NCBI GenBank assembly: GCA_963822135.1
Contig: CAWGGI010000010.1
Location: 385,674 to 449,673 of the forward strand
Direction of reading: 5' to 3'
From: an uncultured Actinomycetota bacterium
GTDB taxonomy: Bacteria > Actinomycetota > Thermoleophilia > RBG-16-64-13
Length of the DNA stretch: 64,000 nucleotides
Both the position numbers and the translations under genes were made by a program. Positions 12,207-44,302 of the stretch are shown here, piece after piece. The notes under the pieces were generated by a model. It did no database searches. It saw only the letters and a list, made by a program, of their open reading frames with translations, and was not told the DNA's origin. Numbering within the stretch: position 1 is the first letter of the stretch; the number at the start of each line of letters is the position of its first letter.

Positions 12207-12237
12207 CCTTGCGCCTAAAGGTTCAAGGAGTACCATT
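12207..12237 (+). promoter_or_regulatory. weaker third copy of the CCTTG..GGTTCAA promoter-like element
   Basis: CCTTGCGC (12207-12214), CTA, AAGGTTCAAG (12218-12227). The -10 is poor (ACCATT). Confidence 0.3.
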
Positions 12238-12271
12238 AGACATATACACGACGAGCGATAGGGGAGAGACC

Positions 12272-14422: not shown

Positions 14423-14504
14423 GCGCCGCGCCCGACGTGACGAAAGCGGACCGTGCTGAACGGGCCGTTGGACCGAATGAATCCCTGTGCAAGGTGGAGG
14501 AGAT

Positions 14505-16368: not shown

Positions 16369-16988
16369 TGACCGCTCGTCCCACCATCAACATGCTGCTC
16401 TCCGGCGTGGGCGGCCAGGGAGTCGTCCTGGCCAGCTTCGTGCTCAGCCACGTGGCCATCGAGGAAGGCTACGACGTCAAGCAGAGCGAAGTGCACGGCA
16501 TGAGCCAGCGGGGCGGCAGCGTGACCAGCCACTTCCGCTTCGGTGACAAGGTCTGGGCTCCGCTGGTGTCGCCCGGTTCCGCCGACATCCTCATGGCCTT
16601 CGAGTCGCTCGAGGCGCTCAGGTACGTCCACTGGCTCAAGCCCGGCGGCCTGCTGGTCTACAACTCCCAGAAGATCAATCCCAGCCCGGTCGCGGCCGGT
16701 CTGGCGACCTATCCGGAAGAGATCGACGCCAAGATCACCGCCGCCTGGCCGCGGGTACAGTGCGTCAAGGCCAACGAGCTCGCCATCCAGGCGGGCACCG
16801 TCAAATCGGCCAACGTGGTGATGCTGGGCGCAGTGTCGCCCGCTCTGCCCTTCAAGGCCGAGACCTGGGAAGCGGTCATCCGCAAGGCGGTCCCGCCCAA
16901 GAGCATCGACGTCAACCTGGAAGCATTCCGTCTAGGAGTGGCGACCGCCGCGGCGCCGGCCGCCTCGTGCGCGACAAGCGGGGCTTGA
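16368..16988 (+). CDS. iorB: indolepyruvate:ferredoxin oxidoreductase beta subunit
   Basis: Intact ORF with ATGA overlap to iorA. INMLLSGVGGQGVVLAS..EVHGMSQRGGSV. Confidence 0.85.
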   Translation: MTARPTINMLLSGVGGQGVVLASFVLSHVAIEEGYDVKQSEVHGMSQRGGSVTSHFRFGDKVWAPLVSPGSADILMAFESLEALRYVHWLKPGGLLVYNSQKINPSPVAAGLATYPEEIDAKITAAWPRVQCVKANELAIQAGTVKSANVVMLGAVSPALPFKAETWEAVIRKAVPPKSIDVNLEAFRLGVATAAAPAASCATSGA

Positions 16989-17079
16989 CCCGTGCCGGAT
17001 GACCGGCCGGGCATAAGGCGCGACCGCCCCTCGGCGTCGCACCGCCGGCGCGCGTCCTCCTCGACCTGACCGGCATGAC

Positions 17080-18373
17080 ATGAGCTTCACTCACAGCCCG
17101 CGCTACAGGTGGGTCGTGCTGGCCATGGGCTTTCTGGCCGTCTTCGGCGCGCTCGGCTTCGGACGGTTCGGCTACAGCGCGATCCTCCCCTCCATGCAGG
17201 AGAGCCTCGGCATCAGCAGTGCTGCGGCCGGCTCGCTGGCTTCGTGGAATCTGGGGGGCTACGTCATCATGGCGGCCGTCGGAGGGCTGTTGGCCTCCCG
17301 CTTCGGTTCGCGGCAAGGTGGTGGCGGCAGGCTCCATCACGGCGGCCGTAGGCATGCTGCTGACCGGATTGGCCACCGGGCTGGTCTCGGCCTCTGCGGC
17401 TCGGCTCTTGACCGGTCTGGGCAGCGGTTGCGTGCTGGTGCCCTCGGTGGCCCTCATGTCGGCGTGGTTCGATGTGCGGCGCCGGGGTATGGCCTCCGGC
17501 ATCGTCACGTCCGGCTCTTCTCTGGCCCTCGTCATCACCGGCCCGCTCGTGCCCGCCATCATCGCCGCCGGGGGCCTGGAGGGGTGGAGATCCGCCTGGT
17601 ACTTCTTCGCAGGACTCACCTTCTTGGTCGGCGTCCTCACCCTGGTCTTCCAGCGTGACCGTCCCTATTCCGCGGTTGCCAAGACGCGACCCGGCCGCGG
17701 GTCGAAGTCCCGTTTGGACCTGGGCAGCGTTGTCCGCTCCCGGTATGCCTGGCACCTGGGCTTCGTGTACCTGATGTTCGGCTTTGCGTACATGGTCTAC
17801 TTCACCTTCTTCCAGAAGCGACTCACCGCGGATCTCGGGTTCAGCAGCAGCGCCGCCGGCCGGCTCTTTCTGGTGGTCGGTGTGGTGAGCCTGGTATGCG
17901 GCGTGCTCTGGGGAGTGGTCTCCGACCGCATCGGTCGGGGAAGGGCCATCGCCGCCATGTGCTTCCTGCAGGCGGTCGCGGCCGTTCTCTTCGCCTGGTG
18001 GCCGGCAACTCCCGGGCTTGTCCTGTCGGCGATCCTCTTCGGGTTGACCTCCCTGGCAGTCCCCGGCATCGTCGGAGCCGGCTGCGGCGACCAGTTCGGT
18101 CCGGTGCTGGCCTCGGCGTCCCTCGGGTTCGTCACCATCTTCCTCGGTATCGGCCAGGTCCTGGGCCCGTACCTAGGCGGGAGGCTCGCGGACACGTACG
18201 GCACGCTCGACTATTCTTATCTCATGGCCGCGGGGGTGTTCTTCCTGGGGGCCGTTCTCGCGGCGCTGCTGAGAGAGACCGGGTGGAAGACCGCGATCGG
18301 CGCCCGGCAGGTGGCATTCAGGTCCTCAGGAGAGGCAAAGGCCGGGGAGACGCAACCGGCAGAAGGGGTGTGA
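17080..18373 (+). CDS. MFS transporter (YbfB/YjiJ-like); frame change near 17310
   Basis: Twelve-TM-type hydrophobic pattern. FGRFGYSAILPSMQESLG.. matches the family N-terminus. Continues in ORF 17219..18373. Confidence 0.7.
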
Positions 18374-18892: not shown

Positions 18893-19888
18893 ATGCGCAG
18901 ATCCCCACGCGGACGCTTGGGAGCCGAGGTGCAGCTACAGCAAATCCAGAAGATCGCGATATTCGGAGCGGGGACCATGGGGCCGGGTCTGGCCCAGGTG
19001 TTCGCCACGGCGGGTTACCAGGTCGCCCTCCACTCGCGGACCGCCGAGACCCTCGACAGGGCGATGGCGATCATCCGCACGAACCTGGCGACGTTCGTCG
19101 ATCGCGGTCTCGTCGAGGAGGCTGCTGTCCCGGTCATCGCAGAGCGGATCGTGCCCACCCGCTCGCTCGAGGAGGCGGCGAGTGACGCCGGTCTCGTCGT
19201 GGAGACCATCGTGGAGAACCGCGAGGCGAAGCAGGCTCTGTGCGAACGCCTCGATGAGGTATGCGCCGAGGATGCCATCCTCACGAGCGACACCTCCTAC
19301 CTGAACATCTTCGAGATCATGCCCGCGCGAAGGCTGCCGCGGACGATCATCGCCCACTGGTTCGCCCCGCCGCACATCGTCCCGCTGGTGGAGGTGGTCA
19401 GAGGCCCAGAGACGACGCAGGAGACGGTGGACGTCGTCGTGGGGCTCATCGAGCGGGTGGGGCATATCCCCTCGGTCATGGAGAAGTTCGTCCCCGGCTT
19501 CTGCATCAACCGGTTGCTGCGCGCTATCGGTCGGGAGGTGTTCTTTCTGCTGGACAACGGCTACATGACGGCCGAGCAACTGGATGTGGCGGTCAAGGCG
19601 AGTATCATCCCACGGGCGATGGTGTTGGGCTTTGTCCAGAGGTATGACTTCACCGGGCTGGATCTAGCCTACGCCAACCTCAAGAACGAGGCCTTCATCG
19701 AGGCGCCGGTGGACAACGACCCCCGCAGTCTGGCGGAGCGGGTCGAGGCCGGAGAACTGGGCGTGAAGACCGGCAAGGGCTTCTTCGACTATCACGGGCG
19801 CTCCCTCCAGCAGGTGCTCCATGAGCGCGACAGCGCGATGCTCGACGTGTTCGGTGACATGAGAGATCTGATCCACAAGCGGATATAG
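18893..19888 (+). CDS. 3-hydroxyacyl-CoA (3-hydroxybutyryl-CoA) dehydrogenase family; the true start is possibly GTG 18929
   Basis: IQKIAIFGAGTMGPGLAQVFA (NAD-binding motif) plus the C-terminal 3HCDH domain (..WFAPPHIVPLVEVV..). Confidence 0.8.
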   Translation: MRRSPRGRLGAEVQLQQIQKIAIFGAGTMGPGLAQVFATAGYQVALHSRTAETLDRAMAIIRTNLATFVDRGLVEEAAVPVIAERIVPTRSLEEAASDAGLVVETIVENREAKQALCERLDEVCAEDAILTSDTSYLNIFEIMPARRLPRTIIAHWFAPPHIVPLVEVVRGPETTQETVDVVVGLIERVGHIPSVMEKFVPGFCINRLLRAIGREVFFLLDNGYMTAEQLDVAVKASIIPRAMVLGFVQRYDFTGLDLAYANLKNEAFIEAPVDNDPRSLAERVEAGELGVKTGKGFFDYHGRSLQQVLHERDSAMLDVFGDMRDLIHKRI

Positions 19889-19904: not shown

Positions 19905-20711
19905 ATGGACATGCCGGCGAAACCAAAGGTGGAAGACCTCGACGACCTCTTCTCGCTCAAGGGCAAGAACGCTGTGGTCGTGGGCGGTGCCGGGGGCATC
20001 GGCCGGGGGCTCGCCGGGGGCCTGGTGAGGTACGGCGCCCAGGTGGCTATCGCCGACATCAACCTGACTGGTCTCGAAAGCGCAGTGGCCGACCTGCAGG
20101 AGTTCACGGGACAGACGGTCAAGGCCTACCGGGTCGATACGGGTCAGGAGAGCAGCGTCGAGGAACTGGTGGCCAGCGCGGTGGCCGATATGGGATCGGT
20201 GAACATCCTCATCAACGCCCAGGGCTTCAATGTCAAGGCGCCTGCCACCGAGTTCCCTGTCGCGGATTGGGACAAGCTCTTCGCCGTCAACGTGCGGGGA
20301 GTGATGCTCTGCTGCAAGCACTTCGCCGCCCACATGGCGGCGCAGGGCGGGGGCAAGATCATCAACCTGTCGTCCATCCGCGGGGCCCGGGCCGCGCTGG
20401 GCGGCAACCTGGCCTACTGCGCCAGCAAGGGTGCCATCGATATGATGACCAAGCAACTGGCGGTCGAGCTGGCCTCCAAGAGGGTGCTGGTCAACGCCAT
20501 CGCGCCGATCATCACCATCACCCCGATGACCGAGGAACGAGTCAAACGGGAAGCCGACCGCTACGAGAAGATGCTCGTGAACGTGCCCATGGGCCGCATG
20601 GGAACCGTCCAAGATCTGATCGGGCCGGCGATCTTCCTCGCCTCGGCTGCTTCGAACTTCGTCACGGGGACCATCCTGTATCCCGACGGCGGGACCATGG
20701 CCTTCGTGTAG
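19905..20711 (+). CDS. SDR-family oxidoreductase
   Basis: RBS GGGAGGA. KGKNAVVVGGAGGIGRG, NLSS..Y.ASKGA catalytic motif, GTILYPDGG C-terminus. Confidence 0.85.
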   Translation: MDMPAKPKVEDLDDLFSLKGKNAVVVGGAGGIGRGLAGGLVRYGAQVAIADINLTGLESAVADLQEFTGQTVKAYRVDTGQESSVEELVASAVADMGSVNILINAQGFNVKAPATEFPVADWDKLFAVNVRGVMLCCKHFAAHMAAQGGGKIINLSSIRGARAALGGNLAYCASKGAIDMMTKQLAVELASKRVLVNAIAPIITITPMTEERVKREADRYEKMLVNVPMGRMGTVQDLIGPAIFLASAASNFVTGTILYPDGGTMAFV

Positions 20712-20807: not shown

Positions 20808-22676
20808 CTACGAGATACCGAGCGCAGCCAGGGTCTCCTTCTTCGGCGCTCCCGTCTCCTTGTCCCAACCCATCGCCTCGAAATACCCCTGCTGCAGCAT
20901 CTCGAAGTCCGGAGGCGTGTTTCCCGCGGCGGGCCCTGCTGCCAGAGGGTTCAGGAAGCGCTTCGGCAGCCGGAAGGTGCGCATGTCCACGCCCTCCCTC
21001 ACGTTGAAGGCCTGGCGCAGCGTGTTGATGCGCTTGCCCGCCGCCAGGCCCTCCGCCCAATCGATGTCCCACCCGGTGACCGGAGCGATGAGCTCGACCA
21101 CAGGCGGCGCATAGAACTGAGCGTAGAGGCCGCAGAGGCCGGCGGAACTGAGAAGTTGATAGAAGGCGGCTCCCCGGGAATAGAGCTCGCCCTTCCTGTC
21201 CCAATCGCCGAAGACCTCGCTGGAATCGGACGTGAGCAGCGGGTCGGAGCCCAGTTTTCCACCGCCTTCGAGCACGCCCATGCCCTGCGAGCCCATGTGG
21301 TTGGCAGGCTGGGCATCGGCGATGAAGTGGGTGCCCATGCTCGGGGCGAGGCGCGGGTCGTGGAACGGGATCGCCCGCCCGGCCACGTGCATGGCGAACT
21401 CCTCGCTGCCCTTGCCGATCGTTTCAGCCGCGAACTTGGAGCCGTCCGCCAGCACTGCGCCGAAGCCCTCGCGTGCGCAGATCTGCCGGGTCAGCTCCAC
21501 GAGAGCCATGGGATCGCCCCATCTCAGTTCTAGGCCGCCCGTGTCGTCCTTGCCGATGAGGCCGTTCTCGTAGCACTCCATCGCGAAGGCCACCGTGGCT
21601 CCCACGCCCATGGTGTCGGCGCCGTACCGGTTGCAGAGTTCGTTGGCCTTGACCACCGCCTCCACCGTGTCGTTCCGACAGTTGGGGCCAAGAGCGGCCA
21701 GCGTCTCGTACTCGGGGCGGTGCACCTCTCCATCAGTGGCGTAGGGGCCCTCCGAGATCTCGATGAGCGCTCCGCAGCGTACCGGGCAGGTGTGGCAGCC
21801 GTAGGACTTGAGTTTGTACACATCCATGTTCGCGGCGTCGAGGTTGCCGCTGGTGGGCAGCGCGTCCAGGCCGGTGGTGTTCCAGTTGTCCACCGGGCAG
21901 TCACCGATCTTGACCAGGAAGCTGGTGGCTCCGCCCGTGCCCGCTTGAGTGAGGCCCTTGTGGAAGGGGCTGTCTTTGAGCTCCTGGCCGTAGCGTTTCT
22001 GGATGGCCTTGAGGCCCTCCTTGTCGGCCACGCCGATACGCGATCCCTTGGCGCCCCGGACCGCGATCGCCTTGAGCTTCTTGGAGCCCATGACCGCGCC
22101 TACTCCCGAACGTGCAGCGATGCGGCCCTTCTCGTTGACGATCCCGGCGAGCAGGGACAGGCGTTCGCCGGCCGGCCCGATGCAGGTGACCGTCCAGGTG
22201 TCCGGCTCGCCCAGCTTGGCCTTGACGGCATCTTCGGTGTCGTAGGTGTCCATGCCCCAGATGTCGTCGGCCGGGACGATGCTGGCCTGGCCCTTGTCGA
22301 TCACGATGCAGACGGGTCCGGCCGCCGCTCCGGTCACGAACAGCCCGTCGTAGCCCGCGAACTTGAGCATCGGTCCCCACGTTCCTCCGGAGTTGGAGTC
22401 CGCCCAGGCGCCGGTGAGCGGCGACTTGCAGGCCACCGTATAGCGACCGCCGCCATAGACGCCGGTACCCGTGAGCGGCCCCGTGGCGAAGGCGAGCAGG
22501 TTGTCCGGGCCCAACGGGTCGATGCCCCGCTCGGTCTTCTCCGCGATGATCGCCGCCGCCAGACCGGCGCCGCCGATCCACCTGCGGTAGAAGGCCTCGT
22601 CCCGTGTCTCAACCGTGATAGCCCCGGTGGTCAAGTCCACGAACAGCAGTTTTCCCACATATCCGTTGTCAGCCAT
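20808..22676 (-). CDS. aldehyde:ferredoxin oxidoreductase (AOR family, tungstopterin type)
   Basis: Intact 622-aa ORF. GKLLFVDLTTG..RRWIGGAGLAA, GPLTGTGVYGGGRYTVACKSPLTG, KSYGCHTCPVRCG and ELCNRYGADTMG are characteristic of AOR. Confidence 0.9.
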   Translation of the reverse strand: MADNGYVGKLLFVDLTTGAITVETRDEAFYRRWIGGAGLAAAIIAEKTERGIDPLGPDNLLAFATGPLTGTGVYGGGRYTVACKSPLTGAWADSNSGGTWGPMLKFAGYDGLFVTGAAAGPVCIVIDKGQASIVPADDIWGMDTYDTEDAVKAKLGEPDTWTVTCIGPAGERLSLLAGIVNEKGRIAARSGVGAVMGSKKLKAIAVRGAKGSRIGVADKEGLKAIQKRYGQELKDSPFHKGLTQAGTGGATSFLVKIGDCPVDNWNTTGLDALPTSGNLDAANMDVYKLKSYGCHTCPVRCGALIEISEGPYATDGEVHRPEYETLAALGPNCRNDTVEAVVKANELCNRYGADTMGVGATVAFAMECYENGLIGKDDTGGLELRWGDPMALVELTRQICAREGFGAVLADGSKFAAETIGKGSEEFAMHVAGRAIPFHDPRLAPSMGTHFIADAQPANHMGSQGMGVLEGGGKLGSDPLLTSDSSEVFGDWDRKGELYSRGAAFYQLLSSAGLCGLYAQFYAPPVVELIAPVTGWDIDWAEGLAAGKRINTLRQAFNVREGVDMRTFRLPKRFLNPLAAGPAAGNTPPDFEMLQQGYFEAMGWDKETGAPKKETLAALGIS

Positions 22677-22715
22677 CGATGTTCCCCCCAGGTGTTGCTT
22701 TGGATTGTTCGGCGG

Positions 22716-23537
22716 TCAGTCGCGCCGCGAATAGCCGAGGAATGCAGAGAGAGAATCGGCCGCCGCTTTGACCGCCTCCGCATAGCGGGGACGCTCGGCC
22801 GGGCCGAAGCGGCCTGTGGGTACCACAAGAGAGAGCCCGGCGATCACCTTGCCCAGTTGGTCGCGGACGGGAGCCGCCACGGCGCAGGTGCCCACGTTTC
22901 GCTCTTCGATGTCGAAGGCCACGCCCTCGCGGGCGACCCCGTCGAGTTCCAGGGCCAGAGCCTCCGGATCGGTGATGGTATTAGGGGTGATCTGAGGATG
23001 CGGTTGCGCCAGTATCGCCGCCCGCTCGCTGCCGGTCTTGAAGGCGGCGAAGACCTTGCCGTTGGCGTTGGCAGTGTCCCCGATGATGCGGCCCACGGCG
23101 ACCTCCCGCCTGAAGGGACGAGGAGTGTCGACCAGGTCGACGCTCACGGCCACCCCATCGACCTCCACGGCCAGGGTGGCCGACTCGCCCGTCTTCTCGG
23201 TGAGCTCGCGCAGATAGGGCTTGGCGATGTCCACCAGCTCCGCGTAACCTTCCGATAAGTAGGTGGCTGCAAGCAGCGCGGGGCCCAGATGGTAGCGGTT
23301 GGTGACCGAGTCACGGATGAGGTAGCGGGCGGCCTCCATGGTCCGGATCATCCGGTAGGCCGTCATGCGCGGCAGCCCGGCCCGCTCGGCTATCTCGTCG
23401 AGGGTCCACTCGCGGTTCTCGGCGTCGAAGAGGCCGAGAACGGTCAGCCCCTTGGCAAGTGCTCTCACGAGAAAGGCGCCCTCTACGGAGCCCGCCTGCC
23501 CTTCTCCCTGTTCGTCTTTCGTCCGAGGTCTTGCCAT
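22716..23537 (-). CDS. IclR-family transcriptional regulator (IclR-1), co-directional with and 39 nt upstream of AOR
   Basis: VRALAKGLTVLGLF..WTLDEIAERAGLPRMTAYRMIRTME.. plus the C-terminal effector domain. RBS GGAGG before Met 23537. Confidence 0.85.
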   Translation of the reverse strand: MARPRTKDEQGEGQAGSVEGAFLVRALAKGLTVLGLFDAENREWTLDEIAERAGLPRMTAYRMIRTMEAARYLIRDSVTNRYHLGPALLAATYLSEGYAELVDIAKPYLRELTEKTGESATLAVEVDGVAVSVDLVDTPRPFRREVAVGRIIGDTANANGKVFAAFKTGSERAAILAQPHPQITPNTITDPEALALELDGVAREGVAFDIEERNVGTCAVAAPVRDQLGKVIAGLSLVVPTGRFGPAERPRYAEAVKAAADSLSAFLGYSRRD

Positions 23538-23689
23538 CGAGACGACCTCCACAATACCCATGCTGGCAGGGAGTGACCCCTCCCTCGTCGCTGATGGTAG
23601 CATGAAGAGTGATATCGGTATACCGGAAATAGCGTAGTGCGGAACCATGCGCACGACGAATGACGTGTCCGTGGTATTCCATTCCGCGT

Positions 23690-23701
23690 TATCTCGATAT
23701 T
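23690..23701. promoter_or_regulatory. 12-nt motif shared with 41683..41694 (candidate IclR box)
   Basis: TATCTCGATATT is the reverse complement of AATATCGAGATA. A perfect palindrome CGGTATACCG lies nearby at 23616-23625. Confidence 0.4.
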
Positions 23702-23767
23702 ACTGGCTGTACATGTGCTATCGTGGTATGACTTCCAGAACGGCCTTTTGACTGCGGGGAGGGGCCC

Positions 23768-24568
23768 ATGACGAGATGGGGAATGGTCATCGATCTGGCG
23801 AAGTGCATGCGGTGCCACGCCTGCGTGGCGGCCTGTAGGATCGAGCACTTCCTGCCACTTAGAGTGACCTGGCCAAGGCTGATCGCTCTCGAGGTGGACG
23901 AGGGCTATCGAGTGGACGTCTCCACCTATCCTGTCCGCTGCAATCAGTGCAAAGACGCGCCGTGCGTCGACGCATGTCCTACCGAGGCGTCGCACAAGCG
24001 CCCGGACGGCATCGTGGCGGTCGATTCTGACAAATGCTTTGGGTGTCGGTACTGCATCATCGCCTGCCCGTATCAGAACCGCACCTACGTGTCCAGGAAG
24101 AGGGACCCCGGCTACTTCCCGGGTCATCCGAAGACCGCCTTTGAGAAGAAGGGCGAGAAGCTGTACCCGCATCAGCGTGGCACCACCGAGAAGTGCAACT
24201 TCTGCATGGAACGCATCGACGCCGGTCTGCCTCGAGGCCTCAAGCCGGGCATCGACCGCGACGCCACTCCGGCGTGCGTGAACACGTGCCAGGCGCGGGC
24301 GCTCACCTTCGGCGACCTGGACGATCCCAACAGCAACATCTCCAAACTCATCCGCGAGAAGAGCGGGTTCGTCCTCCATCCCGAGTACGGCACCGACCCC
24401 TCGGTCTTCTACATCGACTACAGGCTGGGTGGCAGAGATAACAAGGCTCCGCGCGAGGCGCAGACGGGCAGCCACATCCAACACCTGAGCACGGTGTACG
24501 AGCCGTCCAAAGAGAAGCTTGCCACGGTCCACCCCGACCCGGCGAAGGGGGGCAAGAATGAACGCTAG
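23768..24568 (+). CDS. 4Fe-4S ferredoxin-type electron-transfer subunit of a DMSO-reductase-family enzyme (DmsB/PsrB/NrfC-like)
   Basis: WGMVIDLAKCMRCHACVAAC, CNQCKDAPCVDACP, CFGCRYCIIACP, CNFC..CVNTCQ. No twin-arginine signal. Confidence 0.85.
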   Translation: MTRWGMVIDLAKCMRCHACVAACRIEHFLPLRVTWPRLIALEVDEGYRVDVSTYPVRCNQCKDAPCVDACPTEASHKRPDGIVAVDSDKCFGCRYCIIACPYQNRTYVSRKRDPGYFPGHPKTAFEKKGEKLYPHQRGTTEKCNFCMERIDAGLPRGLKPGIDRDATPACVNTCQARALTFGDLDDPNSNISKLIREKSGFVLHPEYGTDPSVFYIDYRLGGRDNKAPREAQTGSHIQHLSTVYEPSKEKLATVHPDPAKGGKNER

Positions 24569-25532
24569 AACGGCCCGCCAGTGGATGGTCACCCATGAGT
24601 GGATGGTCAAGCCCATGGCCCAGACCGAATGGATCGAGGGCAAAGGGCTGCTCGTCTGGCTGGCGGAGGTGTTCTCCGCCCTGGGCACCGGCCTCTATCT
24701 GGTCTCCATCTTCTTCGCGCTCAGCGAGGAGTTCGCGCTCACGGCCTTCTGGGCCGGCATCTTCGGATGGATCATGATCGCCATCTTCAAGCTGCCCCTG
24801 CATCTGGCCTACCTCGGGAAGCCTTGGCGCTTCTGGAGGAGTTTCCCGCCGTTCAGTAACGCGTGGCGGACATCCTGGTTCGCCCGGGGCATCGTGTTCA
24901 CCATGATCTTCCTGGCGTTCGCCGCCGTCCAGCTGATCCTGCAGGGCCTGATCGCCTATGAGGTGGTCTCGTTCGACTCCGGCGCCATGACCGCCAACTA
25001 CGTGTTCATGGTGCTGGCCGGCATCTTCTGCGTCATGACCGCGGTCTACTGCGGCTTCGCCATGAGTTACTGCAAGAGCGTCCCCTTCTGGAACACCGGC
25101 TTGCTTCCCATCGTGTTCCTTCTCATGGGAATCGCCGACGGCCTGGCGCTGATCATGGGCGTGGGCATGGTGACAGGGGAGGACGTGATCCCGACCGCGG
25201 AATCGGCCACCCGTATCATGCTGATCATCAACTCCCTGCTCATCGTGGCCTACCTGATCAACGCGAACTACCAGTCAGAGACCGCCGAGCTCTCGGTGAA
25301 AGAACTCATCCGTGGTCACGTGGCCTGGGTGTTCTGGCTCGGCATCGTGGTCCTTGGCATCATCGTCCCGTTCGGCATCTCGGTCGGTAGCTATTTCACC
25401 GGCGAGGAGGCCGCCACCGGGCTGCTGATCTTCGCGATCATCTGCCACACCATCGGGGCGTTCTCCCTGAAGTACGGCGTGCTCAAGGTCGGCATCTACA
25501 GACCCCTACTTCCCAAGGCTCACGCCTACTAG
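24558..25532 (+). CDS. NrfD/PsrC/DmsC-type integral membrane anchor subunit
   Basis: Polytopic hydrophobic protein (about 8-9 predicted helices by eye) placed between the FeS and catalytic subunits. Overlaps the FeS gene by 11 nt. Confidence 0.65.
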   Translation: MNARTARQWMVTHEWMVKPMAQTEWIEGKGLLVWLAEVFSALGTGLYLVSIFFALSEEFALTAFWAGIFGWIMIAIFKLPLHLAYLGKPWRFWRSFPPFSNAWRTSWFARGIVFTMIFLAFAAVQLILQGLIAYEVVSFDSGAMTANYVFMVLAGIFCVMTAVYCGFAMSYCKSVPFWNTGLLPIVFLLMGIADGLALIMGVGMVTGEDVIPTAESATRIMLIINSLLIVAYLINANYQSETAELSVKELIRGHVAWVFWLGIVVLGIIVPFGISVGSYFTGEEAATGLLIFAIICHTIGAFSLKYGVLKVGIYRPLLPKAHAY

Positions 25533-25560
25533 GCGCAGGGCACGTGCCCAAGGAGACACT

Positions 25561-27786
25561 ATGGCAAACAGAGAAGTAGTCTATTCGACCTGCAAGAGCT
25601 GCCACGGCGGCTGCGGCGTGAAGATCACCAAGGAAGACGGGGTCGTCGTCCACATCCAAGGCAACCCCGACTCACTGACCGCGGGCACGATGTGCTCCAA
25701 AGGTCTCTCCAGCATCCAGCACCTCGACAATCCGTACCGCATCAAGTACCCCATGAAGCAGGTGGGCAAGAAGGGCGAAGGCAAGTGGAAGCGCATCTCC
25801 TGGGACGAGGCCCTGGACACCATCGCCGACAAGATGAAGGACGCCATCGCCGATCCGGGGCCGCAGAGCATCGCAATCTCTCAGGGCACCGGACGCGGGT
25901 ATAACCGCTACACCATGCGGCTCGCGCGCTCCCTGGGCACGGGCAACGCCATCACCCCCGGCTACGTCTGCCACAGCCCTCGCTTGGGTCTGTATGCCCT
26001 GGTGACCGGCTACGGCCGCCTGTACTGCGACTACCATGGCTGGGGCGGCGAGTTTCCCAAGACCCAGATCATGTGGGCCAAACAGCTCGAGATCAGCAGC
26101 GCCGACTCTGAGATGGCCTACTGGTTCATGAACTCACTCGACTACTGCAAGAACCTCATCATCATCGACCCGCGCGCGAGCGCGTACGCGTCGCGCGCCA
26201 CCCTGTGGATCCAGCCGCGTCCCGGCACCGACTGCGCGCTGGCCCTGGGGATGATGAACGTCATCATCGAGGAAGAGCTCTGGGACAAAGACTTCGTAGA
26301 GAACTGGACCTTCGGCTTCGACGAGTTGCGTGAGCGGGTCAAGGAATGGACGCCCGAGAAGGTGTCCGACATCTGCTGGATCCCCAAGGAGCACGTGGTC
26401 GACGCGGCGCGCATGTGGGCCGTCGATACCCCGGGCTGCATCCAGGTGGGTAGCTCGCTCGAGCGCCAAGCCAACTGCGGCCACACCCTCAGGGCAATCA
26501 CCTGCCTCATGGGTCTTGCCGGCAATATCGAGCGGCCGGGCAGCATGATCAGCTGGGTGCTTCCCGACACAGGCCTCATCGAGGACTTCAACCTCGAGCT
26601 GCCCATCACCGACGAGATGAAGTCCAAGATCATCGGCGGCGACCGCTTCAAGATGGGCGCCACTCGTACCTGCAACCCCGACACCATGGTCAAGGCCATC
26701 AACGCGGGCAAAGCCCCGATCCGTGTGTGGTTCAGCGTCGGTGGCCAGCAGATCGTGCATATGGCCAACACCAAAGAGGTGGTCGAGGCCATCGAGAAGG
26801 TCGAGTTCATGTCCCACACCGACCTGTTCATGGGTCCCATGGCCGAGGCCGCCGACATCGTGCTGCCGGCCGCTCACTGGCTGGAACTGGACGACGTCTA
26901 CGACATGCACCCGCGGTTCATGATCGAGGCACACAACAAGGTCGTCGACCCGCCCGGTGAGGCCAGGTCCGACGCGTGGATCTTCAATGAGATCGGCCGG
27001 CGCGTGGTCCCCGACAAGTGGTGGTCCACGGTCGACGAAATGCTCGACTATCAGCTCCGGCGGGGCGAGAGCAAGGACGGCGGTGCGCTGACCTTCAAGG
27101 AGTTCAGCGAGAAACTCGTGAGCGGCTGCTGGGGTCCCGATCAGGTGTACTACAAGTACAAGACCGACTTCTGGCGAGAGGGCGGCGGGTTCCCCACTCC
27201 GTCGGGCAAGTTCGAGTTCAGATCACAGCACCTGGAGTCCCTGGGATACGACGGACTGCCGGTCTTCAACGAGCCGGGCGAGAGCCCCGTCTCCACTCCC
27301 GAGCTGTACAAGGAATACCCCCTCGTGATGAGCAGCGGCTACCGCCAGCCCTTCTACTTCCTGGGGCAGTACCGCAACATCCCCTGGCTGCGCAGTTTCA
27401 TGGAGTTCCCCACCTGCCAGCTCCATCCCGAGACGGCCAAGCTGTACGGCGTCGAAGACGGCGACATCGTCTGGCTCGAATCGCCGCGGGGCAGGGTGCG
27501 GCAGAAACTGCGCACCTTCCCGGGCATCAAGAAGGGCGTGCTCATGGCCACGGCCAACTGCTTCTATCCGGAGGAGCCGGCCAAGGGTTATCACGGCGTG
27601 TTCATCTCCAACCCGAACGTGCTCACCAGCAACGACCACCTGGATCCCATGTACGGCTCGCCCGACCTCACCTGTCTCCTCTGCAAGGTCTACAAGGCCA
27701 AGGACGAGGAACTGAAGGAAGAGGTGTTCCAGAGCGAGGAGTACGGGTTCGTGCCCAGGACCACCTCGGGCATGCAGGATACATAA
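25561..27786 (+). CDS. molybdopterin/tungstopterin oxidoreductase catalytic subunit (bis-MGD; acetylene-hydratase / polysulfide-reductase-like clade). No Tat signal
   Basis: Intact 741-aa ORF. N-terminal FS0 motif CKSCHGGC..(25)..C, then YPMKQVGKKGEGKWKRISWDEALD. The N-terminus MANREVVYS lacks an RR motif. Confidence 0.85.
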   Translation: MANREVVYSTCKSCHGGCGVKITKEDGVVVHIQGNPDSLTAGTMCSKGLSSIQHLDNPYRIKYPMKQVGKKGEGKWKRISWDEALDTIADKMKDAIADPGPQSIAISQGTGRGYNRYTMRLARSLGTGNAITPGYVCHSPRLGLYALVTGYGRLYCDYHGWGGEFPKTQIMWAKQLEISSADSEMAYWFMNSLDYCKNLIIIDPRASAYASRATLWIQPRPGTDCALALGMMNVIIEEELWDKDFVENWTFGFDELRERVKEWTPEKVSDICWIPKEHVVDAARMWAVDTPGCIQVGSSLERQANCGHTLRAITCLMGLAGNIERPGSMISWVLPDTGLIEDFNLELPITDEMKSKIIGGDRFKMGATRTCNPDTMVKAINAGKAPIRVWFSVGGQQIVHMANTKEVVEAIEKVEFMSHTDLFMGPMAEAADIVLPAAHWLELDDVYDMHPRFMIEAHNKVVDPPGEARSDAWIFNEIGRRVVPDKWWSTVDEMLDYQLRRGESKDGGALTFKEFSEKLVSGCWGPDQVYYKYKTDFWREGGGFPTPSGKFEFRSQHLESLGYDGLPVFNEPGESPVSTPELYKEYPLVMSSGYRQPFYFLGQYRNIPWLRSFMEFPTCQLHPETAKLYGVEDGDIVWLESPRGRVRQKLRTFPGIKKGVLMATANCFYPEEPAKGYHGVFISNPNVLTSNDHLDPMYGSPDLTCLLCKVYKAKDEELKEEVFQSEEYGFVPRTTSGMQDT

Positions 27787-27911: not shown

Positions 27912-28625
27912 CTATTCGGAGCCGGTCGCGCGCGGGGAAGCGAGCACGGTCTCCATGAACGAGCGCCAAAGGGCAAAGGCGCCCTGCACATCGACGCTAC
28001 CTGGCTCCGCAAGCACCTGCACGGCCAGGCCGTCGCTGAGAGCCACGGTCATCGCTGCCAGCTCGCGCACCATGGCCGGCGGCTCTCCGGCGAGGTCGCC
28101 CCACAGGGCTCGAGCATTGACCTCGCGATAGCCTCGGTACAGTGCGGCTAGCTGCCTGGCCATCCGCGGATTCTCGAGAAGGCGGGGCAAGAGATCGAAC
28201 AATAGCCGGTACGAGGCCTCGTCTTCCACGATGGTCTGGGCGGCGTCGGTCAGGACGGAGAGTCGGTCCTTGGTGTCGGAGAGACCGGCGAGGCGTTGGC
28301 GCGCCCTCCGGAGGGTGTCCGAGATCAGGCTGTCGGTGAGGGCCACGAGCAGCCCGTTCTTCGAACCAAAGTAGTATCGGATCAGGGCCTTGTTCTCGCC
28401 TGCTTCTTGGCCGATGGCCTCGACCGAGAGCGAGTTGTACCCCGAGCGCACCAGCAGCCGGTGGGCTGCGTCCAGCAGGCGTTGAGCGGTGGGAGGCAGT
28501 TCGGAATCGGCGCCGGGCAGGAGCGACACGGTTCTCCCCGGGCCTGGGTCATGCCGGCCGGCCTTCCGGCCATTGCCGCGATTCGGTTGCGAGTTCTCTG
28601 CCATGGGCTGCCCCCAACCACGCAC
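27912..28625 (-). CDS. TetR-family transcriptional regulator (start 28625 or 28604)
   Basis: RLLDAAHRLLVRSGYNSLSVEAIGQEAGENKALIRYYFGSKNGLLVAL is a typical TetR HTH. Confidence 0.85.
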   Translation of the reverse strand: MRGWGQPMAENSQPNRGNGRKAGRHDPGPGRTVSLLPGADSELPPTAQRLLDAAHRLLVRSGYNSLSVEAIGQEAGENKALIRYYFGSKNGLLVALTDSLISDTLRRARQRLAGLSDTKDRLSVLTDAAQTIVEDEASYRLLFDLLPRLLENPRMARQLAALYRGYREVNARALWGDLAGEPPAMVRELAAMTVALSDGLAVQVLAEPGSVDVQGAFALWRSFMETVLASPRATGSE

Positions 28626-28721
28626 AGCTCGGACGTCGACGCACCTTCTCTCCTCACGATACCATCATCACCATCACGTTTGTATGGTTGGACAAAAGGG
28701 GTGCGGCTGTTGGGCAGATGC

Positions 28722-28751
28722 TTGACGCGAATCCCGCAAAATGCCTATACT
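28722..28751 (+). promoter_or_regulatory. sigma-70-like promoter candidate for the ald operon
   Basis: TTGACG (28722-28727), 18 nt, TATACT (28746-28751). An A/T-rich GTTTAA..TTAAAAAAC element lies downstream. Confidence 0.5.
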
Positions 28752-28815
28752 GATGTTTAATCATACGGTTAAAAAACCTGAGCTTGCCAAGGTTGCGCGC
28801 CACTGGAGGGACGGC

Positions 28816-29922
28816 ATGATCGTCGGGGTCCCGAAGGAAGTCAAGAACCACGAATACCGTGTGGCCATGGTGCCCGCAGGCGCCAAGAGTCTGGTTGCGG
28901 ACGGGCACACCGTGATCGTCGAGACTTCGGCGGGGGTGGGTTCGGGCATCTCCGACGAAGAGTATGTCGGCGCCGGGGCCCTCATCAGGCCCACCGCCGA
29001 GGCGGTCTTCGCCGAGGCCGACATGATCGTCAAGGTCAAGGAACCCCTTCCTCAGGAGTATCCGCTGCTGCGGCGAGATCAGATCCTCTTCACCTACCTG
29101 CATCTCGCCCCTGCCCCGGAGCTCACCCGGGCTCTGCTCGAGAGGGGCGTGGTCGGCATAGCCTACGAGACGGTCCAACTCGCGAACGGTTCGCTTCCTC
29201 TCCTGACCCCCATGAGCGAGGTGGCCGGGCGGCTCTCCATCCAGGTGGCGGCCCACTGGCTGGAGAAAGAGAACGGCGGAAGCGGGGTGCTCCTGGGCGG
29301 CGTCCCGGGTACTGCGCCGGCGAACGTGGCCATCATCGGCGGAGGTACGGTTGGCACCAACGCGGCCAAGATGGCCCTGGGCATGGGAGCCAATGTCACC
29401 ATCCTCGACATCAATCTCGACAGACTACGGTATCTGGACGATGTGCTCGGCGGCAGGCTGACCGTGCTCGCCTCCAACGACGTGAACATAGAGAGAGCGG
29501 TGGTGGAGGCCGACGCGGTTATCGGCGCGCTTCTCGTTCCAGGCGCCAAGGCTAAAAAGGTAGTGACCACGTCGCTCATCTCGAGGATGCGCAAGGGATC
29601 GGTGGTCGTCGATGTAGCCATCGACCAAGGGGGTTGCGTCGAAGGCGCCGTTCCTACCACGCATCAGGACCCGGTCATCCGGGTCGGCGGGGTCACGCTG
29701 TTCTGCGTCGCCAACATGCCGGGCTGTGTGGCGAGGACTTCCACTTTCGCGCTCACCAATGCGACCTTCCCCTACGCTTCTCGGCTCGCGAACCTAGGCT
29801 ACGAGGCCGCTCTCAAATCCGACCCGGCTCTCGCGAAGGGCCTGAACGTGCTGCAGGGGCGACTGGTGTCCAAGGCCGTCGCCGACGGGGTCGGCATGCA
29901 GTGCGAGACCTACGAGATCTGA
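28816..29922 (+). CDS. ald: alanine dehydrogenase
   Basis: MIVGVPKEVKNHEYRVAMVPAG.., GGVPGTAPANVAIIGGGTVGTNAAKMA, VDVAIDQGGC. Confidence 0.9.
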   Translation: MIVGVPKEVKNHEYRVAMVPAGAKSLVADGHTVIVETSAGVGSGISDEEYVGAGALIRPTAEAVFAEADMIVKVKEPLPQEYPLLRRDQILFTYLHLAPAPELTRALLERGVVGIAYETVQLANGSLPLLTPMSEVAGRLSIQVAAHWLEKENGGSGVLLGGVPGTAPANVAIIGGGTVGTNAAKMALGMGANVTILDINLDRLRYLDDVLGGRLTVLASNDVNIERAVVEADAVIGALLVPGAKAKKVVTTSLISRMRKGSVVVDVAIDQGGCVEGAVPTTHQDPVIRVGGVTLFCVANMPGCVARTSTFALTNATFPYASRLANLGYEAALKSDPALAKGLNVLQGRLVSKAVADGVGMQCETYEI

Positions 29923-29976
29923 CCTGGCAGAGTCACGGGGCGGCCCGCGCTCACGACGTGAAAGGATGGGCGGCAG

Positions 29977-31353
29977 ATGATTTCCGAAGCTGAACTGATG
30001 GGACTGTCCTTCCCCGATGCCCCCAAGATGATCACCAAGGTCCCCGGGCCCAAGGTGGCGGCGCTCATGGAAGAGTCGGCCAAGTACGAGGCCTTCACCC
30101 GGGGCGGCGGCGGCTTCCCCGTCATCCTCGAGGAGGGCAAAGGGGCCACCGCCAAGGATGCCGACGGCAATCTCTATATAGACATGGCAGCTGGAGTGGC
30201 GGTCAACGCGGTGGGTAGAGGGCATCCACTGATCCTCGAGGCCATCAACCGGCAGTGCAACCTGATCATGCACACCACCGACATCACCAACCCCAAGCGC
30301 ATAGCCTTGGCCAAGAAGGTCTCCGAGGTCATGCCTGAAGGGCTGCGCGGCAACTGCCATACCTCGTTCTTCCAGGCGGGATCCGACGCGGTCGAGACCG
30401 CCATAAAGTTCTCCCGTCGCCACACCGGCAGGACACAGATCCTGGCGTTCCAGGGCGCCTACCATGGGGTCTGGTGCGGCACCAGCGCTCTCACCACCGG
30501 TTACAACTACCGGCACGGCTGGGGCCCGCTCATCGCCGGCGTCCAGCATCTGCCCTACGGCTACTGTTATCGCTGCCCGTTCAACATGACCTACCCCGAC
30601 TGCGACGTGCAGTGCGGCAAGTATGTCGACTACGTGCTCAACACGCCGTACACGGCTGCCGACGACGTGGCCGCCGTCATCGTGGAGTCGCAGCAGGGTG
30701 AAGGCGGTTACGTGGCGCCGCCTCCCGAGTTCTTCCAGCTCATCAAAGCCGCCTGCGAGAAGTATGGATGCCTCTACGTGGCCGACGAGGTGCAGTCCGG
30801 TGCCGGCCGCACGGGCAAGATGTGGTGCATCGAACATACCGGTGTGCAGCCCGACATGCTCACCTGGGGCAAGGGGATGGGAGGAGATCTTCCCATGGCC
30901 GGCCTTACCTACCGGGCCGAGATCGAGAAGAGCCTGGCGGAAGGCTCGCAGCCCAGCACCTTCGCCGGCAACGCCCTCGGCTGCGAAGTGTGCATGACCA
31001 ACATCGACATCATCCTCGATCCGCAGATGGACCTTCTTGGACGCGCGACTCAGCTTGGAGACGAGATCCGGGCCAAGTTCATCGACGCCATGCCCAACGT
31101 CACGTGCATCGGTGACGTACGGGGGCGCGGCCTGATGCTCGGCGTCGAGGTGGTGGCCGACCGCAAGACCAAAGAGCCGCTCGCGGGCGCCAAGTGCGGC
31201 GAGATCGCCTTCAAGCTGCTCAACCGGGGCGTGCTCATGACTCCGTGCGGCCGCTACGGCAACGTATTCCGCTTCATGCCGCCGCTGACGGTCCCGCGGG
31301 AGTACGCCTACAAGGCCACCGACATCATGATCGACGTTCTCAAGGAGTACTGA
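29977..31353 (+). CDS. class-III (omega/GABA-type) PLP aminotransferase
   Basis: DADGNLYIDMAAGVAVNAVGRGHP, FQAGSDAVETAIK, ADEVQSGAGRTGKMW, and the PLP lysine in TWGKGMGG. Confidence 0.85.
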   Translation: MISEAELMGLSFPDAPKMITKVPGPKVAALMEESAKYEAFTRGGGGFPVILEEGKGATAKDADGNLYIDMAAGVAVNAVGRGHPLILEAINRQCNLIMHTTDITNPKRIALAKKVSEVMPEGLRGNCHTSFFQAGSDAVETAIKFSRRHTGRTQILAFQGAYHGVWCGTSALTTGYNYRHGWGPLIAGVQHLPYGYCYRCPFNMTYPDCDVQCGKYVDYVLNTPYTAADDVAAVIVESQQGEGGYVAPPPEFFQLIKAACEKYGCLYVADEVQSGAGRTGKMWCIEHTGVQPDMLTWGKGMGGDLPMAGLTYRAEIEKSLAEGSQPSTFAGNALGCEVCMTNIDIILDPQMDLLGRATQLGDEIRAKFIDAMPNVTCIGDVRGRGLMLGVEVVADRKTKEPLAGAKCGEIAFKLLNRGVLMTPCGRYGNVFRFMPPLTVPREYAYKATDIMIDVLKEY

Positions 31354-31383
31354 CAGCAGGGATCCACGCGGGGGGAGCGCTCG

Positions 31384-32328
31384 ATGGGGGATCAAGCGCG
31401 CTGGATATCGGTAGGGGAACTGGCTGAGGCCTTCGGTCCCGACAGCCACACCCCTGTGGCAGTCGCGGACCTTGCGGGCACCGTGCAGACGCTCCACTTC
31501 GAGGACGAGCGGGTCGTCGAACACCGCTTCCTATCGGAATCCGCGTTGGTCTGGACGGTGAGCGGGGGCCCCGCCGAGGGGGCCACCGGGAAGGCGGACT
31601 ATCGGGCGCTGAAGGTGCGCAAGGGCATCTACTTCGTTGACTTCGTCGCCCACCAGGCGCCACCTACCGCGATCAGTCTGGTCCTCGATCTCGAGCGACA
31701 GATAGCCACGTCTCTGATCGCCCGCCTACCTGAGCGGCCGGATGTCGGCCGCTCGCTGCTCGCCCGGATCAACGCAGGAGAGGAGCCCACGGCGGTGTCC
31801 GCCGACTTCTCGAGTGCGGCGATCGGCACCCCGTTTACCGCGGCCACGCCCCGACACGAATCCACGCGCGATCTCATCGGCCGGCGCATCGAGTACACGT
31901 ACAGCCTCACGGAACGCTACGAGCACATCTACCTCAACGAGCACCTCTACACATGGCACTGCCTTCTGGGGTCGGAGAAGGGGCTGGCCGACACCGATCG
32001 GTGCCATCACTTCAACCTGGGAGACCAGCTCTACCTGTTCGTGTGGAGGGAGAAGATCGTTCCCACACTCGGCGCCGTCGTCGTTGATCTCGCGGCCATG
32101 CGCACGATGGGGAAGATATACGGGCACGCGCAGGCTGGGGACCCGGACGGTCGTCCCGCGCAGGCCGGCTTCGCCCCTGCCGACTCCGTCCCTGCGGGCG
32201 CGGCGACGACCGGCGGGACCATCGGTCGCCGCGCGAGCTCTCCTCCGCCTGGTGTGGTGAACTTCTTGGTCGGTGCGCGCGCACGTCTCCTCGACGTGAC
32301 GGTTTATGGCGAGGAGAGTGCACGGTGA
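31384..32328 (+). CDS. MoaF-like (calycin-type, two-domain) protein
   Basis: Pattern LAGTVQTLHFED..YRALKVRKGIYFVDF.. and ..RIEYTYSLTERYEHIYLNEHLYTWHCLLGSEKG..LYLFVWREK resembles the MoaF N- and C-terminal domains from memory. The last 70 or so codons are low-complexity. Confidence 0.45.
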   Translation: MGDQARWISVGELAEAFGPDSHTPVAVADLAGTVQTLHFEDERVVEHRFLSESALVWTVSGGPAEGATGKADYRALKVRKGIYFVDFVAHQAPPTAISLVLDLERQIATSLIARLPERPDVGRSLLARINAGEEPTAVSADFSSAAIGTPFTAATPRHESTRDLIGRRIEYTYSLTERYEHIYLNEHLYTWHCLLGSEKGLADTDRCHHFNLGDQLYLFVWREKIVPTLGAVVVDLAAMRTMGKIYGHAQAGDPDGRPAQAGFAPADSVPAGAATTGGTIGRRASSPPPGVVNFLVGARARLLDVTVYGEESAR

Positions 32329-32431
32329 ACCACGCCGGGAGGTCCATGCTAATCTGTTTGCCGCGAGCCTTCAGCCCGGCCGGCGACCGGGCGGGACCGT
32401 GCAGAAGTGGGCGACGGGTGTTGGGGGGAGA

Positions 32432-35025: not shown

Positions 35026-35035
35026 GGGTGCGGAC

Positions 35036-35806: not shown

Positions 35807-35825
35807 CGTGACAAAGGGGGAGAAG

Positions 35826-44298: not shown

Positions 44299-44302
44299 AG
44301 AC

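Follow-up and report, generated by a model that had tools for sequence, protein, structure and literature searches.

A Tat-less FeS-NrfD-molybdoenzyme operon of uncultured Actinomycetota and its relatives: a candidate cytoplasm-facing (de)hydroxylase of hydroxylated aromatics

A stretch of 64,000 nucleotides (nt) of contig CAWGGI010000010.1, from an uncultured Actinomycetota bacterium, was analysed (the window; all coordinates are window positions unless a related locus is named). It carries three genes for an iron-sulfur (FeS) protein, an NrfD-type membrane anchor and a catalytic subunit predicted to hold molybdenum or tungsten (Mo/W) as the bis(pyranopterin guanine dinucleotide) (bisPGD) cofactor. 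These are termed subunits B, C and A, and together the trio. With the two genes upstream of them they were identified as the following open reading frames (ORFs):

20808-22676, minus strand: AOR, tungsten aldehyde:ferredoxin oxidoreductase (Pfam AFOR_N, E 1e-73; AFOR_C, E 9e-106)
22716-23654, minus strand, maximal ORF: IclR-family regulator (Pfam HTH_IclR and IclR_C)
23768-24568, plus strand: subunit B, FeS protein (Pfam Fer4_11 and related domains)
24558-25532, plus strand, maximal ORF from 24519: subunit C, NrfD-type anchor (PF03916)
25561-27786, plus strand: subunit A, Mo/W-bisPGD catalytic subunit (Molybdop_Fe4S4, E 9e-12; Molybdopterin, E 1e-45; Molydop_binding, E 1e-16)

The five ORFs of 20808-27786 are maximal and of coding-type composition (G+C at third codon positions 0.79-0.89). 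An earlier note on this DNA had given the order FeS-NrfD-catalytic; all five genes were found again with Pfam support, and the N-termini it quoted for the catalytic and FeS subunits are exact. The trio forms a tight, intact operon on the plus strand, with the IclR and AOR genes divergent upstream. The stop codon of the FeS gene overlaps the ATG of the NrfD gene at 24558, the NrfD stop lies 28 nt from the catalytic ATG, an AAGGAG is placed 6 nt 5' of that ATG, and the Shine-Dalgarno-like GGGGAGGGG precedes the FeS ATG. This layout shows the operon to be translationally coupled. The start of subunit C at 24558 agrees with a start sequence shared among its homologues (MxxxxxRQWxVTHEWMV), and the real start of the IclR gene is probably near 23537 (MARPRTK...).

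Subunit B possesses sixteen cysteines in four groups of the CxxCxxCxxxC type, corresponding to four [4Fe-4S] clusters, and a C-terminal tail of ~45 residues. Its matches in the PDB include ArrB (6cz7_B, E 1e-36) and PsrB (2vpw_B, E 4e-32), and its top NCBIfam match is DsrO (179.8 bits, under the cut-off of 200), with residue 2 of the subunit falling at profile position 42. On this similarity it is assigned as a four-cluster electron-transfer protein resembling PsrB, ArrB and DsrO. Subunit C was recognised by PF03916 with 62.2 bits (cut-off 25.8, E 8e-17) and has eight predicted helices, in agreement with the NrfD-type assignment of the earlier note; a sequence search of the PDB with this subunit gave no match. 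The trio is thus predicted to be a complex iron-sulfur molybdoenzyme, consisting of a Mo/W-bisPGD subunit, a four-cluster ferredoxin and an eight-helix NrfD anchor.

The family was sampled by a genome scan, which found 158 relatives among species-representative genomes; the results reported here are for the best 80 (66-98% identity). For the neighbourhoods, all ORFs of 83 loci were clustered, and 81 loci remained after same-contig duplicates had been dropped. No twin-arginine translocation (Tat) leader was identified on the trio. Both the FeS and the catalytic ORF open at the first start codon after a stop, and no upstream extension of either is possible. Compared with the profiles of the Tat-bearing proteins PhsA, DmsA, TtrB, NrfC and DsrO, residues 2-10 of subunits A and B fall at profile positions ~37-55, which indicates that the leader is missing and not mis-called. 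A motif of the [ST]RRxFL type within the first 45 residues occurs in 0 of 81 family members, and in most of the maximal ORFs of these 81 relatives the CxxCxxxC motif of the N-terminal cluster, FS0 (CKSCHGGC), begins ~10 residues from the start. The absence of a twin-arginine motif, observed in the earlier note for this one locus, holds for these relatives as well.

The distribution of lysine and arginine (K+R) in subunit C points in the same direction. Eight hydropathy peaks were identified, with K+R counts per loop of 4, 0, 6, 0, 1, 0, 2, 0 and 4, giving 17 on the side that bears the two termini and 0 on the opposite side. The 45 NrfD members of the family predicted to have eight helices show means of 18.7 vs 0.84. 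By the same method, aligned helix for helix, the E. coli reference proteins (from MG1655) show the opposite pattern, with 4 vs 8 for DmsC and 5 vs 12 for NrfD. The termini of E. coli DmsC have been located experimentally in the periplasm. From the inverted K+R bias, the face of subunit C to which the FeS subunit docks is predicted to be cytoplasmic. Both termini of subunit C would accordingly be cytoplasmic, the reverse of the topology of DmsC and NrfD, and the catalytic dimer is predicted to sit on the cytoplasmic face of the membrane. The earlier note had suggested a cytoplasm-facing enzyme from the lack of a leader, and the K+R count lends this independent support.

An orientation of this kind has a precedent. 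In a 2021 review of NrfD-like subunits, SoeABC is the sole complex on the cytoplasmic side (N-side) with an inverted NrfD-like subunit (PMC8076601). It shares with the trio the predicted N-side orientation, the inverted NrfD-like subunit and a Tat-less catalytic subunit (PMC8076601, PMC9324843). It differs in its sulfur-oxidation context and its gene order (ABC vs B-C-A), and the catalytic subunit of the trio is acetylene-hydratase-like; SoeA was compared by its published description. PsrABC and PhsABC have the same three-subunit blueprint and an anchor of the NrfD Pfam family, but their catalytic subunits PsrA and PhsA have Tat leaders and lie on the periplasmic side, on an anchor of opposite topology, whereas subunit A is Tat-less and misses the PhsA cut-off.

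The nearest solved relative of subunit A is the acetylene hydratase of Pelobacter acetylenicus (PDB 2e7z, E 1e-87, full length, 33.6% identity), which scores 298 bits against 170 for PsrA (2vpw_A, E 4e-49). The two proteins have the same size, are both Tat-less and predicted or known to be cytoplasmic, and share the same ligands: the FS0 cysteines C11, C14, C18 and C45, the relay lysine K47 and the metal ligand C137 of subunit A correspond to C9, C12, C16, C46, K48 and C141 of acetylene hydratase. These cofactor ligands are invariant in the 71-74 family members aligned. Their completeness led us to reject a degenerate scaffold of the QrcB or ActB kind for subunit A.

The substrate pocket is a different matter. 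The catalytic Asp13 of acetylene hydratase is replaced by His15, which is His in 71 of 71 aligned members, and the residues ringing the acetylene (Ile14, Ile113, Ile142, Trp179, Trp293 and Trp472) are replaced by Gly16, Gly111, His138, Ala181, Val296 and His450. The ring replacements vary little or not at all among 74 aligned sequences, in which 174 of 741 columns are invariant and the strictly conserved residues of the pocket are His15, His138, Arg141 and His450. With Asp13 and all six ring residues lost, subunit A is not an acetylene hydratase, and that activity, one of two alternatives offered in the earlier note, is excluded. The substitutions suggest instead a cofactor-competent enzyme with a pocket that is larger and more polar than that of acetylene hydratase throughout the family. 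Acetylene hydratase is moreover a soluble, non-redox monomer, whereas subunit A is co-translated with a four-cluster FeS protein and an anchor; with FeS and NrfD genes co-operonic in 68-79 related loci, subunit A does not have the form of a stand-alone soluble enzyme.

The other alternative of the earlier note, a catechol-dehydroxylase-like activity, fits these data best. The catechol dehydroxylases of gut Actinobacteria are bis(molybdopterin guanine dinucleotide) enzymes and form the sister group of acetylene hydratase (PMC7028382). Two forms have been described: three-subunit membrane complexes with a Tat leader, and soluble two-subunit enzymes of ~770 amino acids (aa) without one (PMC7028382, PMC11585353). 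The Dadh, Hcdh, Cadh, Dodh and Cldh enzymes of Eggerthella and Gordonibacter act on hydroxylated aromatics, as is proposed here for the trio. Those of E. lenta share with it the combination of a catalytic subunit, a 4x[4Fe-4S] protein and a membrane anchor, and those of Gordonibacter, of ~770 aa, share with subunit A the lack of a Tat leader. Unlike the trio, which is Tat-negative and has a predicted inverted anchor, E. lenta Hcdh has a Tat-positive, outward-facing catalytic subunit of 1193 aa. The hosts of the trio, which are environmental metagenome-assembled genomes (MAGs), and its IclR-type regulator also set it apart from the catechol dehydroxylases.

An inorganic substrate was considered as well, the complex being in that case an inward-facing sulfite dehydrogenase like SoeABC or a reductase of the polysulfide, thiosulfate, tetrathionate or arsenate type. 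The orientation is analogous to that of SoeABC, the top NCBIfam profiles are PhsA in the case of subunit A and, in that of subunit B, DsrO and ArrB, and some clusters 36-39% identical to subunit A bear the automatic name 'thiosulfate/polysulfide reductase chain A'. The scores themselves speak against such an assignment. Subunit A reaches no curated NCBIfam equivalog, its best match being PhsA at 266.9 bits against a cut-off of 694 with an alignment that begins at profile position 41, and subunit B scores 143 against 450 for ArrB; the closer affinity of subunit A to acetylene hydratase than to PsrA counts in the same sense. Furthermore, no genes of sulfur or arsenic metabolism were identified in the window or in the recurrent neighbourhoods. 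We consider an inorganic substrate improbable.

The best 80 of the 158 relatives are all MAGs and belong to at least six phyla, with hosts among Actinomycetota, Thermoleophilia/Gaiellales, Dehalococcoidia, Desulfatiglans/Desulfobacteraceae, Acidobacteriota and SAR324 and in one betaproteobacterial bin. The trio family is widespread in uncultured anaerobes of soil and sediment. Nearest to the window is a Microflora Danica Actinomycetota MAG (locus L004, 98% identical). A protein search with subunit A returned 120 clusters at 67-92% identity, unnamed or with generic names, from MAGs of Thermoleophilia, Dehalococcoidales, Desulfobacteraceae and others. An exhaustive HMMER search revealed a sharp edge to the family, with one sister cluster at 53% identity and nothing else above 42%. 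Acetylene hydratase is more distant from subunit A than are over 150 uncharacterised 50%-identity clusters, and the names of 20 cluster representatives at 35-53% identity proved to be generic or automatic only.

In a tblastn search of plasmids, the only matches were genes for soluble acetylene-hydratase-like proteins of the aerobes Mycobacterium and Rhodococcus, and none of them had an FeS or NrfD gene as partner. One of these, annotated 'Acetylene hydratase' and 36% identical to subunit A, lies on a plasmid of Mycobacterium sp. THAF192 (L086, 3250-10130), co-linear with an operon for a di-iron monooxygenase of the toluene-4-monooxygenase type and with moeA/moaA, in an aerobe. It may represent another, uncharacterised use of the acetylene hydratase clade.

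As far as the contigs permit, the three genes stand in the order FeS-NrfD-Mo (ORF clustering, 68 of 81 loci; tblastn, 79 of 83), and the genes that recur beside it across phyla are those for transhydroxylase-like enzymes of the AthL/BthL type. Of 81 loci, 28 have AthL-like genes within 10 kb of the trio. AthL/BthL genes follow it directly on the same strand in 18 of 74 loci, often as two or three paralogues; these 18 comprise every locus of Desulfobacterota, SAR324 and Acidobacteriota that has a downstream gene, as well as 7 of 15 from Thermoleophilia. A second recurrent set, found near the trio in 15 of 81 loci, consists of a short-chain dehydrogenase/reductase (SDR) with a beta-keto acid cleavage enzyme (BKACE) and/or a member of the 3-hydroxyacyl-CoA dehydrogenase family (3HCDH). 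In other Actinomycetota the genes stand beside the trio as IclR-SDR-BKACE-3HCDH, and in L001 and L038 the SDR gene lies within an SDR-BKACE-3HCDH-IclR block. It has been described that phloroglucinol reductase (PGR), triacetate acetoacetate-lyase and the triacetate-forming dehydrogenase (TfD) belong to the SDR, BKACE and 3HCDH families, respectively (PMC10470551), so the phloroglucinol pathway is represented by three of its four enzyme families. A metallo-beta-lactamase-fold hydrolase also accompanies SDR/BKACE/3HCDH in L058 (3206-4132) and seven other loci (ORF cluster 22). No dihydrophloroglucinol cyclohydrolase (DPGC) of the 'cyclase' family was seen in loci of the L058 type, and the hydrolase may be an alternative ring-opening enzyme.

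The window contains representatives of both sets, although at a distance from the trio in the case of AthL/BthL:

18893-19888, plus strand: 3HCDH-family gene (Pfam; 65% identical to the 3HCDH of related loci)
19905-20711, plus strand: SDR gene (Pfam; 71% identical to the SDR of related loci)
37202-38020, minus strand: BthL-like FeS subunit (Fer4_11 and CarboxypepD_reg, PF13620)
38028-40865, minus strand, real start near 40649: AthL-like Mo subunit (AhtL-like_1st PF21423, Molybdopterin PF00384, Molydop_binding PF01568)
40795-41592, minus strand: second IclR-family regulator, upstream of the AthL/BthL pair (Pfam)
41780-44334, plus strand (region 41744-45139): second AthL-like gene (Pfam fragments; tblastn pieces in frames 2, 3 and 1)
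44303-45139, plus strand: second BthL-like gene, intact (Pfam)

The AthL-like protein of 38028-40865 matches pyrogallol hydroxytransferase (PDB 4v4c, E 9e-126) and conserves the NPDSWEGW (Asp-Ser) motif. Its gene lies ~10 kb downstream of the trio, and it is 70-72% identical to the trio-adjacent AthL of L002 and L022. The pair, which is intact, is therefore a putative enzyme of the pyrogallol-phloroglucinol transhydroxylase or resorcinol hydroxylase type and, by this identity, the orthologue of the pair found directly after the trio in other phyla. The frameshifts of the second AthL-like gene are probably sequencing errors, and the region may encode a second functional enzyme of the transhydroxylase type. 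The 3HCDH and SDR genes of the window are assigned, at the level of family, to those of TfD and PGR; no BKACE gene was found in the window.

Tight operonic coupling with AthL/BthL could also be explained if subunit A were a non-catalytic or electron-transfer module, as in QrcB and ActB, with the trio as the link between the quinone pool and the FeS clusters of AthL/BthL. BthL-type subunits do bear FeS clusters, for which we know of no established role in the Pelobacter enzyme. In L034, a Dehalococcoidales MAG, three Tat-less Mo/FeS/NrfD sets lie on 22 kb (1663-6226 and 13222-17414), among them an FeS-NrfD-AthL-like and a Mo (879 aa)-FeS-NrfD arrangement, and the extra NrfD paralogues show K+R ratios of 14:1 and 12:1. 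Several catalytic subunits of these bacteria, the AthL type included, thus seem to work with inward-facing FeS-NrfD modules. Subunit A, however, has kept all FS0 cysteines, Lys47 and Cys137, unlike the cofactor-less QrcB, the strict conservation of its pocket and its many invariant columns also speak against such a role, and 53 of 81 loci have the trio but no AthL gene. A non-catalytic role is accordingly judged highly improbable.

The candidate put forward in the earlier note was an enzyme resembling phenylacetyl-CoA:acceptor oxidoreductase (PadBCD), which would convert arylacetyl-CoA to arylglyoxylate with a quinone as acceptor. PadBCD of Thauera and Aromatoleum is a membrane-bound Mo-FeS enzyme with three subunit types, a membrane subunit among them, and its substrate is a cytoplasmic aromatic CoA ester (PMC5109826), a setting like that proposed for the trio. 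The window offers a suitable context, with an indolepyruvate/2-oxoacid:ferredoxin oxidoreductase (IOR), two acyl-CoA synthetases, AOR and an aminotransferase near the trio. This context is lineage-specific, since it is confined to some Actinomycetota: AOR is near the trio in 12 of 81 loci, all from Actinomycetota/Thermoleophilia except one Dehalococcoidia locus, and IOR-alpha-like clusters (13 of 83 loci) and ADP-forming acyl-CoA synthetases (9 of 83) occur in Actinomycetota/Thermoleophilia only. The synthetases of the window are likewise ADP-forming (ATP-grasp_5/CoA_binding) and not PadJ-like ligases. Enzymes of this type normally end pathways at the free acid and do not activate it. No padEFGHI- or padJ-like genes recur near the trio, known phenylacetate degraders are not among the 80 best genome matches, the gene order is B-C-A and not padBCD, and the partners conserved across phyla are AthL/BthL. 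PadBCD, compared here by its published description, is in our view quite improbable as a model. The IclR-AOR pair stressed in the earlier note is indeed divergent from the trio in this genome; as a feature of the system it did not hold, as IclR genes occur in 24 of 81 loci, in Actinomycetota and Thermoleophilia only, and AOR is rarer still.

The Dehalococcoidia loci have neighbours of their own, either URO-D-like, carboxylesterase, thiamine diphosphate enzyme and zinc alcohol dehydrogenase genes or FixC/FixX-like, UbiA-family, radical SAM and cytochrome b genes. In L053, L083, L050 and L055-L059 (Dehalococcoidales) the downstream genes encode FixC/FixX-like proteins, a UbiA-family prenyltransferase, an AhbD-like radical SAM protein, a UbiE-like methyltransferase and a cytochrome b561-like protein. 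None of these reached an NCBIfam cut-off in a scan that covered all but cytochrome b561 and FixX. A role of the UbiA, radical SAM and methyltransferase genes in menaquinone biosynthesis was considered and found unsupported, the NCBIfam heme and prenyltransferase matches being sub-threshold.

The reading that we favour, with a probability of somewhat over one half (roughly 0.55), is that the trio faces the cytoplasm, is coupled to quinone and acts as a (de)hydroxylase of a hydroxylated aromatic, with the catechol dehydroxylases as relatives. Subunit A would hold Mo- or W-bisPGD via Cys137 together with an N-terminal [4Fe-4S] cluster, and the four [4Fe-4S] clusters of subunit B would wire it to subunit C, an NrfD-type quinone/quinol anchor placed upside-down compared with DmsC, NrfD and PsrC. 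The clade, the pocket and the neighbourhood suggest that the substrate is an imported hydroxylated aromatic. On it a two-electron oxygen-atom (hydroxyl) transfer would take place, the electrons being exchanged with the menaquinone pool. The complex would belong to an anaerobic funnel in which polyphenol monomers (pyrogallol, hydroxyhydroquinone and similar) pass via AthL/BthL to phloroglucinol and on to acetate units, and in this lineage the IclR-type regulator would control the trio. With the substrate site and the predicted quinone site both facing the N-side, the role of the complex would be that of a redox valve or electron sink and not that of an arm of an electrogenic redox loop.

For the direction of the reaction we have a weak preference for quinol-driven reductive dehydroxylation, as in the catechol dehydroxylases. 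It is favoured because the only redox-active relatives that have been characterised dehydroxylate, because menaquinone would, by our reasoning, be a poor acceptor for hydroxylation in strictly anaerobic hosts (Dehalococcoidales, Desulfatiglans), and because in some Dehalococcoidales the trio has FixCX-like quinone-reducing modules as direct neighbours. The same complex in the same orientation could instead be an oxidative, water-dependent hydroxylase of a di- or trihydroxybenzene, delivering electrons to menaquinone and feeding or priming AthL/BthL; examples would be the conversion of resorcinol, catechol or hydroquinone to a trihydroxybenzene, or of pyrogallol to 1,2,3,5-tetrahydroxybenzene. 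The operonic association with one to three AthL/BthL paralogues is in keeping with this, and SoeABC, the only other inward-facing NrfD complex, runs in the quinone-reducing direction. Membrane-associated Mo hydroxylation of the resorcinol/3,5-dihydroxybenzoate type was reportedly treated by Darley et al. 2007. The anaerobic hydroxylations of resorcinol and 3,5-dihydroxybenzoate have been described as membrane-associated Mo reactions, but the aromatic hydroxylases of the superfamily are of the Ser-ligated AthL/RhL type and not of the Cys-ligated acetylene hydratase type (PMC10100899). The first two arguments for the reductive direction also count against it, and we regard an oxidative hydroxylase as a serious rival, though an unlikely one.

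Several points weigh against a quinone-coupled (de)hydroxylase. No member of the family and none of the nearest clusters looked up is characterised or informatively named, and the likeness to catechol dehydroxylases was drawn from published descriptions. The topology is a prediction from hydropathy and a positive-inside calculation. His65 and Glu87 of the quinol site of DmsC align to Tyr and Trp in subunit C, where a His stands three residues earlier, and the coupling of this subunit to quinone is attributed to it by family membership only. The direction is argued from analogy and rough thermodynamic reasoning. Of 29 Dehalococcoidia loci, 28 have no AthL or SDR/BKACE/3HCDH genes nearby. Within the phloroglucinol pathway, the cyclase DPGC was not seen, and no PGR-named entry is among the best 59 PDB matches of the SDR of the window. 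The link of the trio to anaerobic polyphenol catabolism is, in our judgement, real but unproven.

A wider proposal joins the (de)hydroxylase to its partners: the trio may be a respiratory or redox-balancing polyphenol (de)hydroxylase not recognised before, which forms with AthL/BthL a quinone-buffered, hydroxyl-shuffling system that gates phenols of tannin and lignin into the phloroglucinol pathway. The trio could, for example, make or remove 1,2,3,5-tetrahydroxybenzene, the co-substrate of transhydroxylase, for which we know of no established physiological source. In this full form the proposal is speculative and rather unlikely to hold.

The remaining genes of the window include many that are split between reading frames (56476-63887, 12323-16365, 17050-18316 and 33299-34277), namely those for rpoB, rpoC, IOR alpha, an ADP-forming acyl-CoA synthetase, a major facilitator superfamily (MFS) transporter and ABC permeases. 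That the essential rpoB and rpoC are among them points to indel errors of a long-read assembly, not to real pseudogenes. In the region 27912-37063 a TetR regulator gene precedes those for alanine dehydrogenase, a class III aminotransferase, a protein with a MoaF domain and an ABC transporter of the branched-chain type. This block recurs by the trio and AOR in 11-14 loci of Actinomycetota/Thermoleophilia and suggests a route from amine to aldehyde to acid in which AOR oxidises the aldehyde. At 128-1738 and 12209-16988 lie the two ADP-forming acyl-CoA synthetases (ATP-grasp_5 and CoA_binding) and the IOR, then an MFS transporter; the synthetases and IOR would constitute an ATP-yielding 2-oxoacid module, trio-adjacent only in some Actinomycetota. 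DUF3237 and EthD-domain proteins adjoin a split SDR gene at 8409-9613, and a LarA-like gene (lactate racemase family) is located at 49264-50577 near succinyl-CoA-ligase-like genes.

Each element of the system has a precedent of its own: the blueprint in complex iron-sulfur molybdoenzymes, the clade in acetylene hydratase and the catechol dehydroxylases, and the inverted orientation in SoeABC. As early as 2013, pyrogallol hydroxytransferase genes of Chloroflexi were reported to have 'acetylene hydratase-like' genes next to them (PMC3971608), and in peat metatranscriptomes some genes of this kind already go by the name 'catechol dehydroxylase' (PMC12203004). The novelty lies in bringing these elements together: a subunit of the acetylene hydratase type that lacks a Tat leader, on a predicted inward FeS-NrfD module that is very strongly conserved across phyla and operonic with transhydroxylase-like genes. 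It would be the second class of cytoplasm-facing, NrfD-anchored molybdoenzyme to be predicted, after SoeABC, and the third architecture in the acetylene hydratase/catechol dehydroxylase lineage. Such genes should not be annotated as acetylene hydratase or polysulfide reductase.

Anaerobic turnover of polyphenols governs the storage of carbon in peat, soils and sediments (the 'enzyme latch' debate), and to our knowledge few of its enzymes are known. For a missing step of anaerobic phenol metabolism, one linked to quinone, the trio offers a concrete and testable candidate. If the proposal is true, a hydroxyl-shuffling role would be common to abundant uncultured anaerobes of soil, peat and sediment, among them Thermoleophilia/Gaiellales, Dehalococcoidales, Desulfatiglans and Acidobacteriota.

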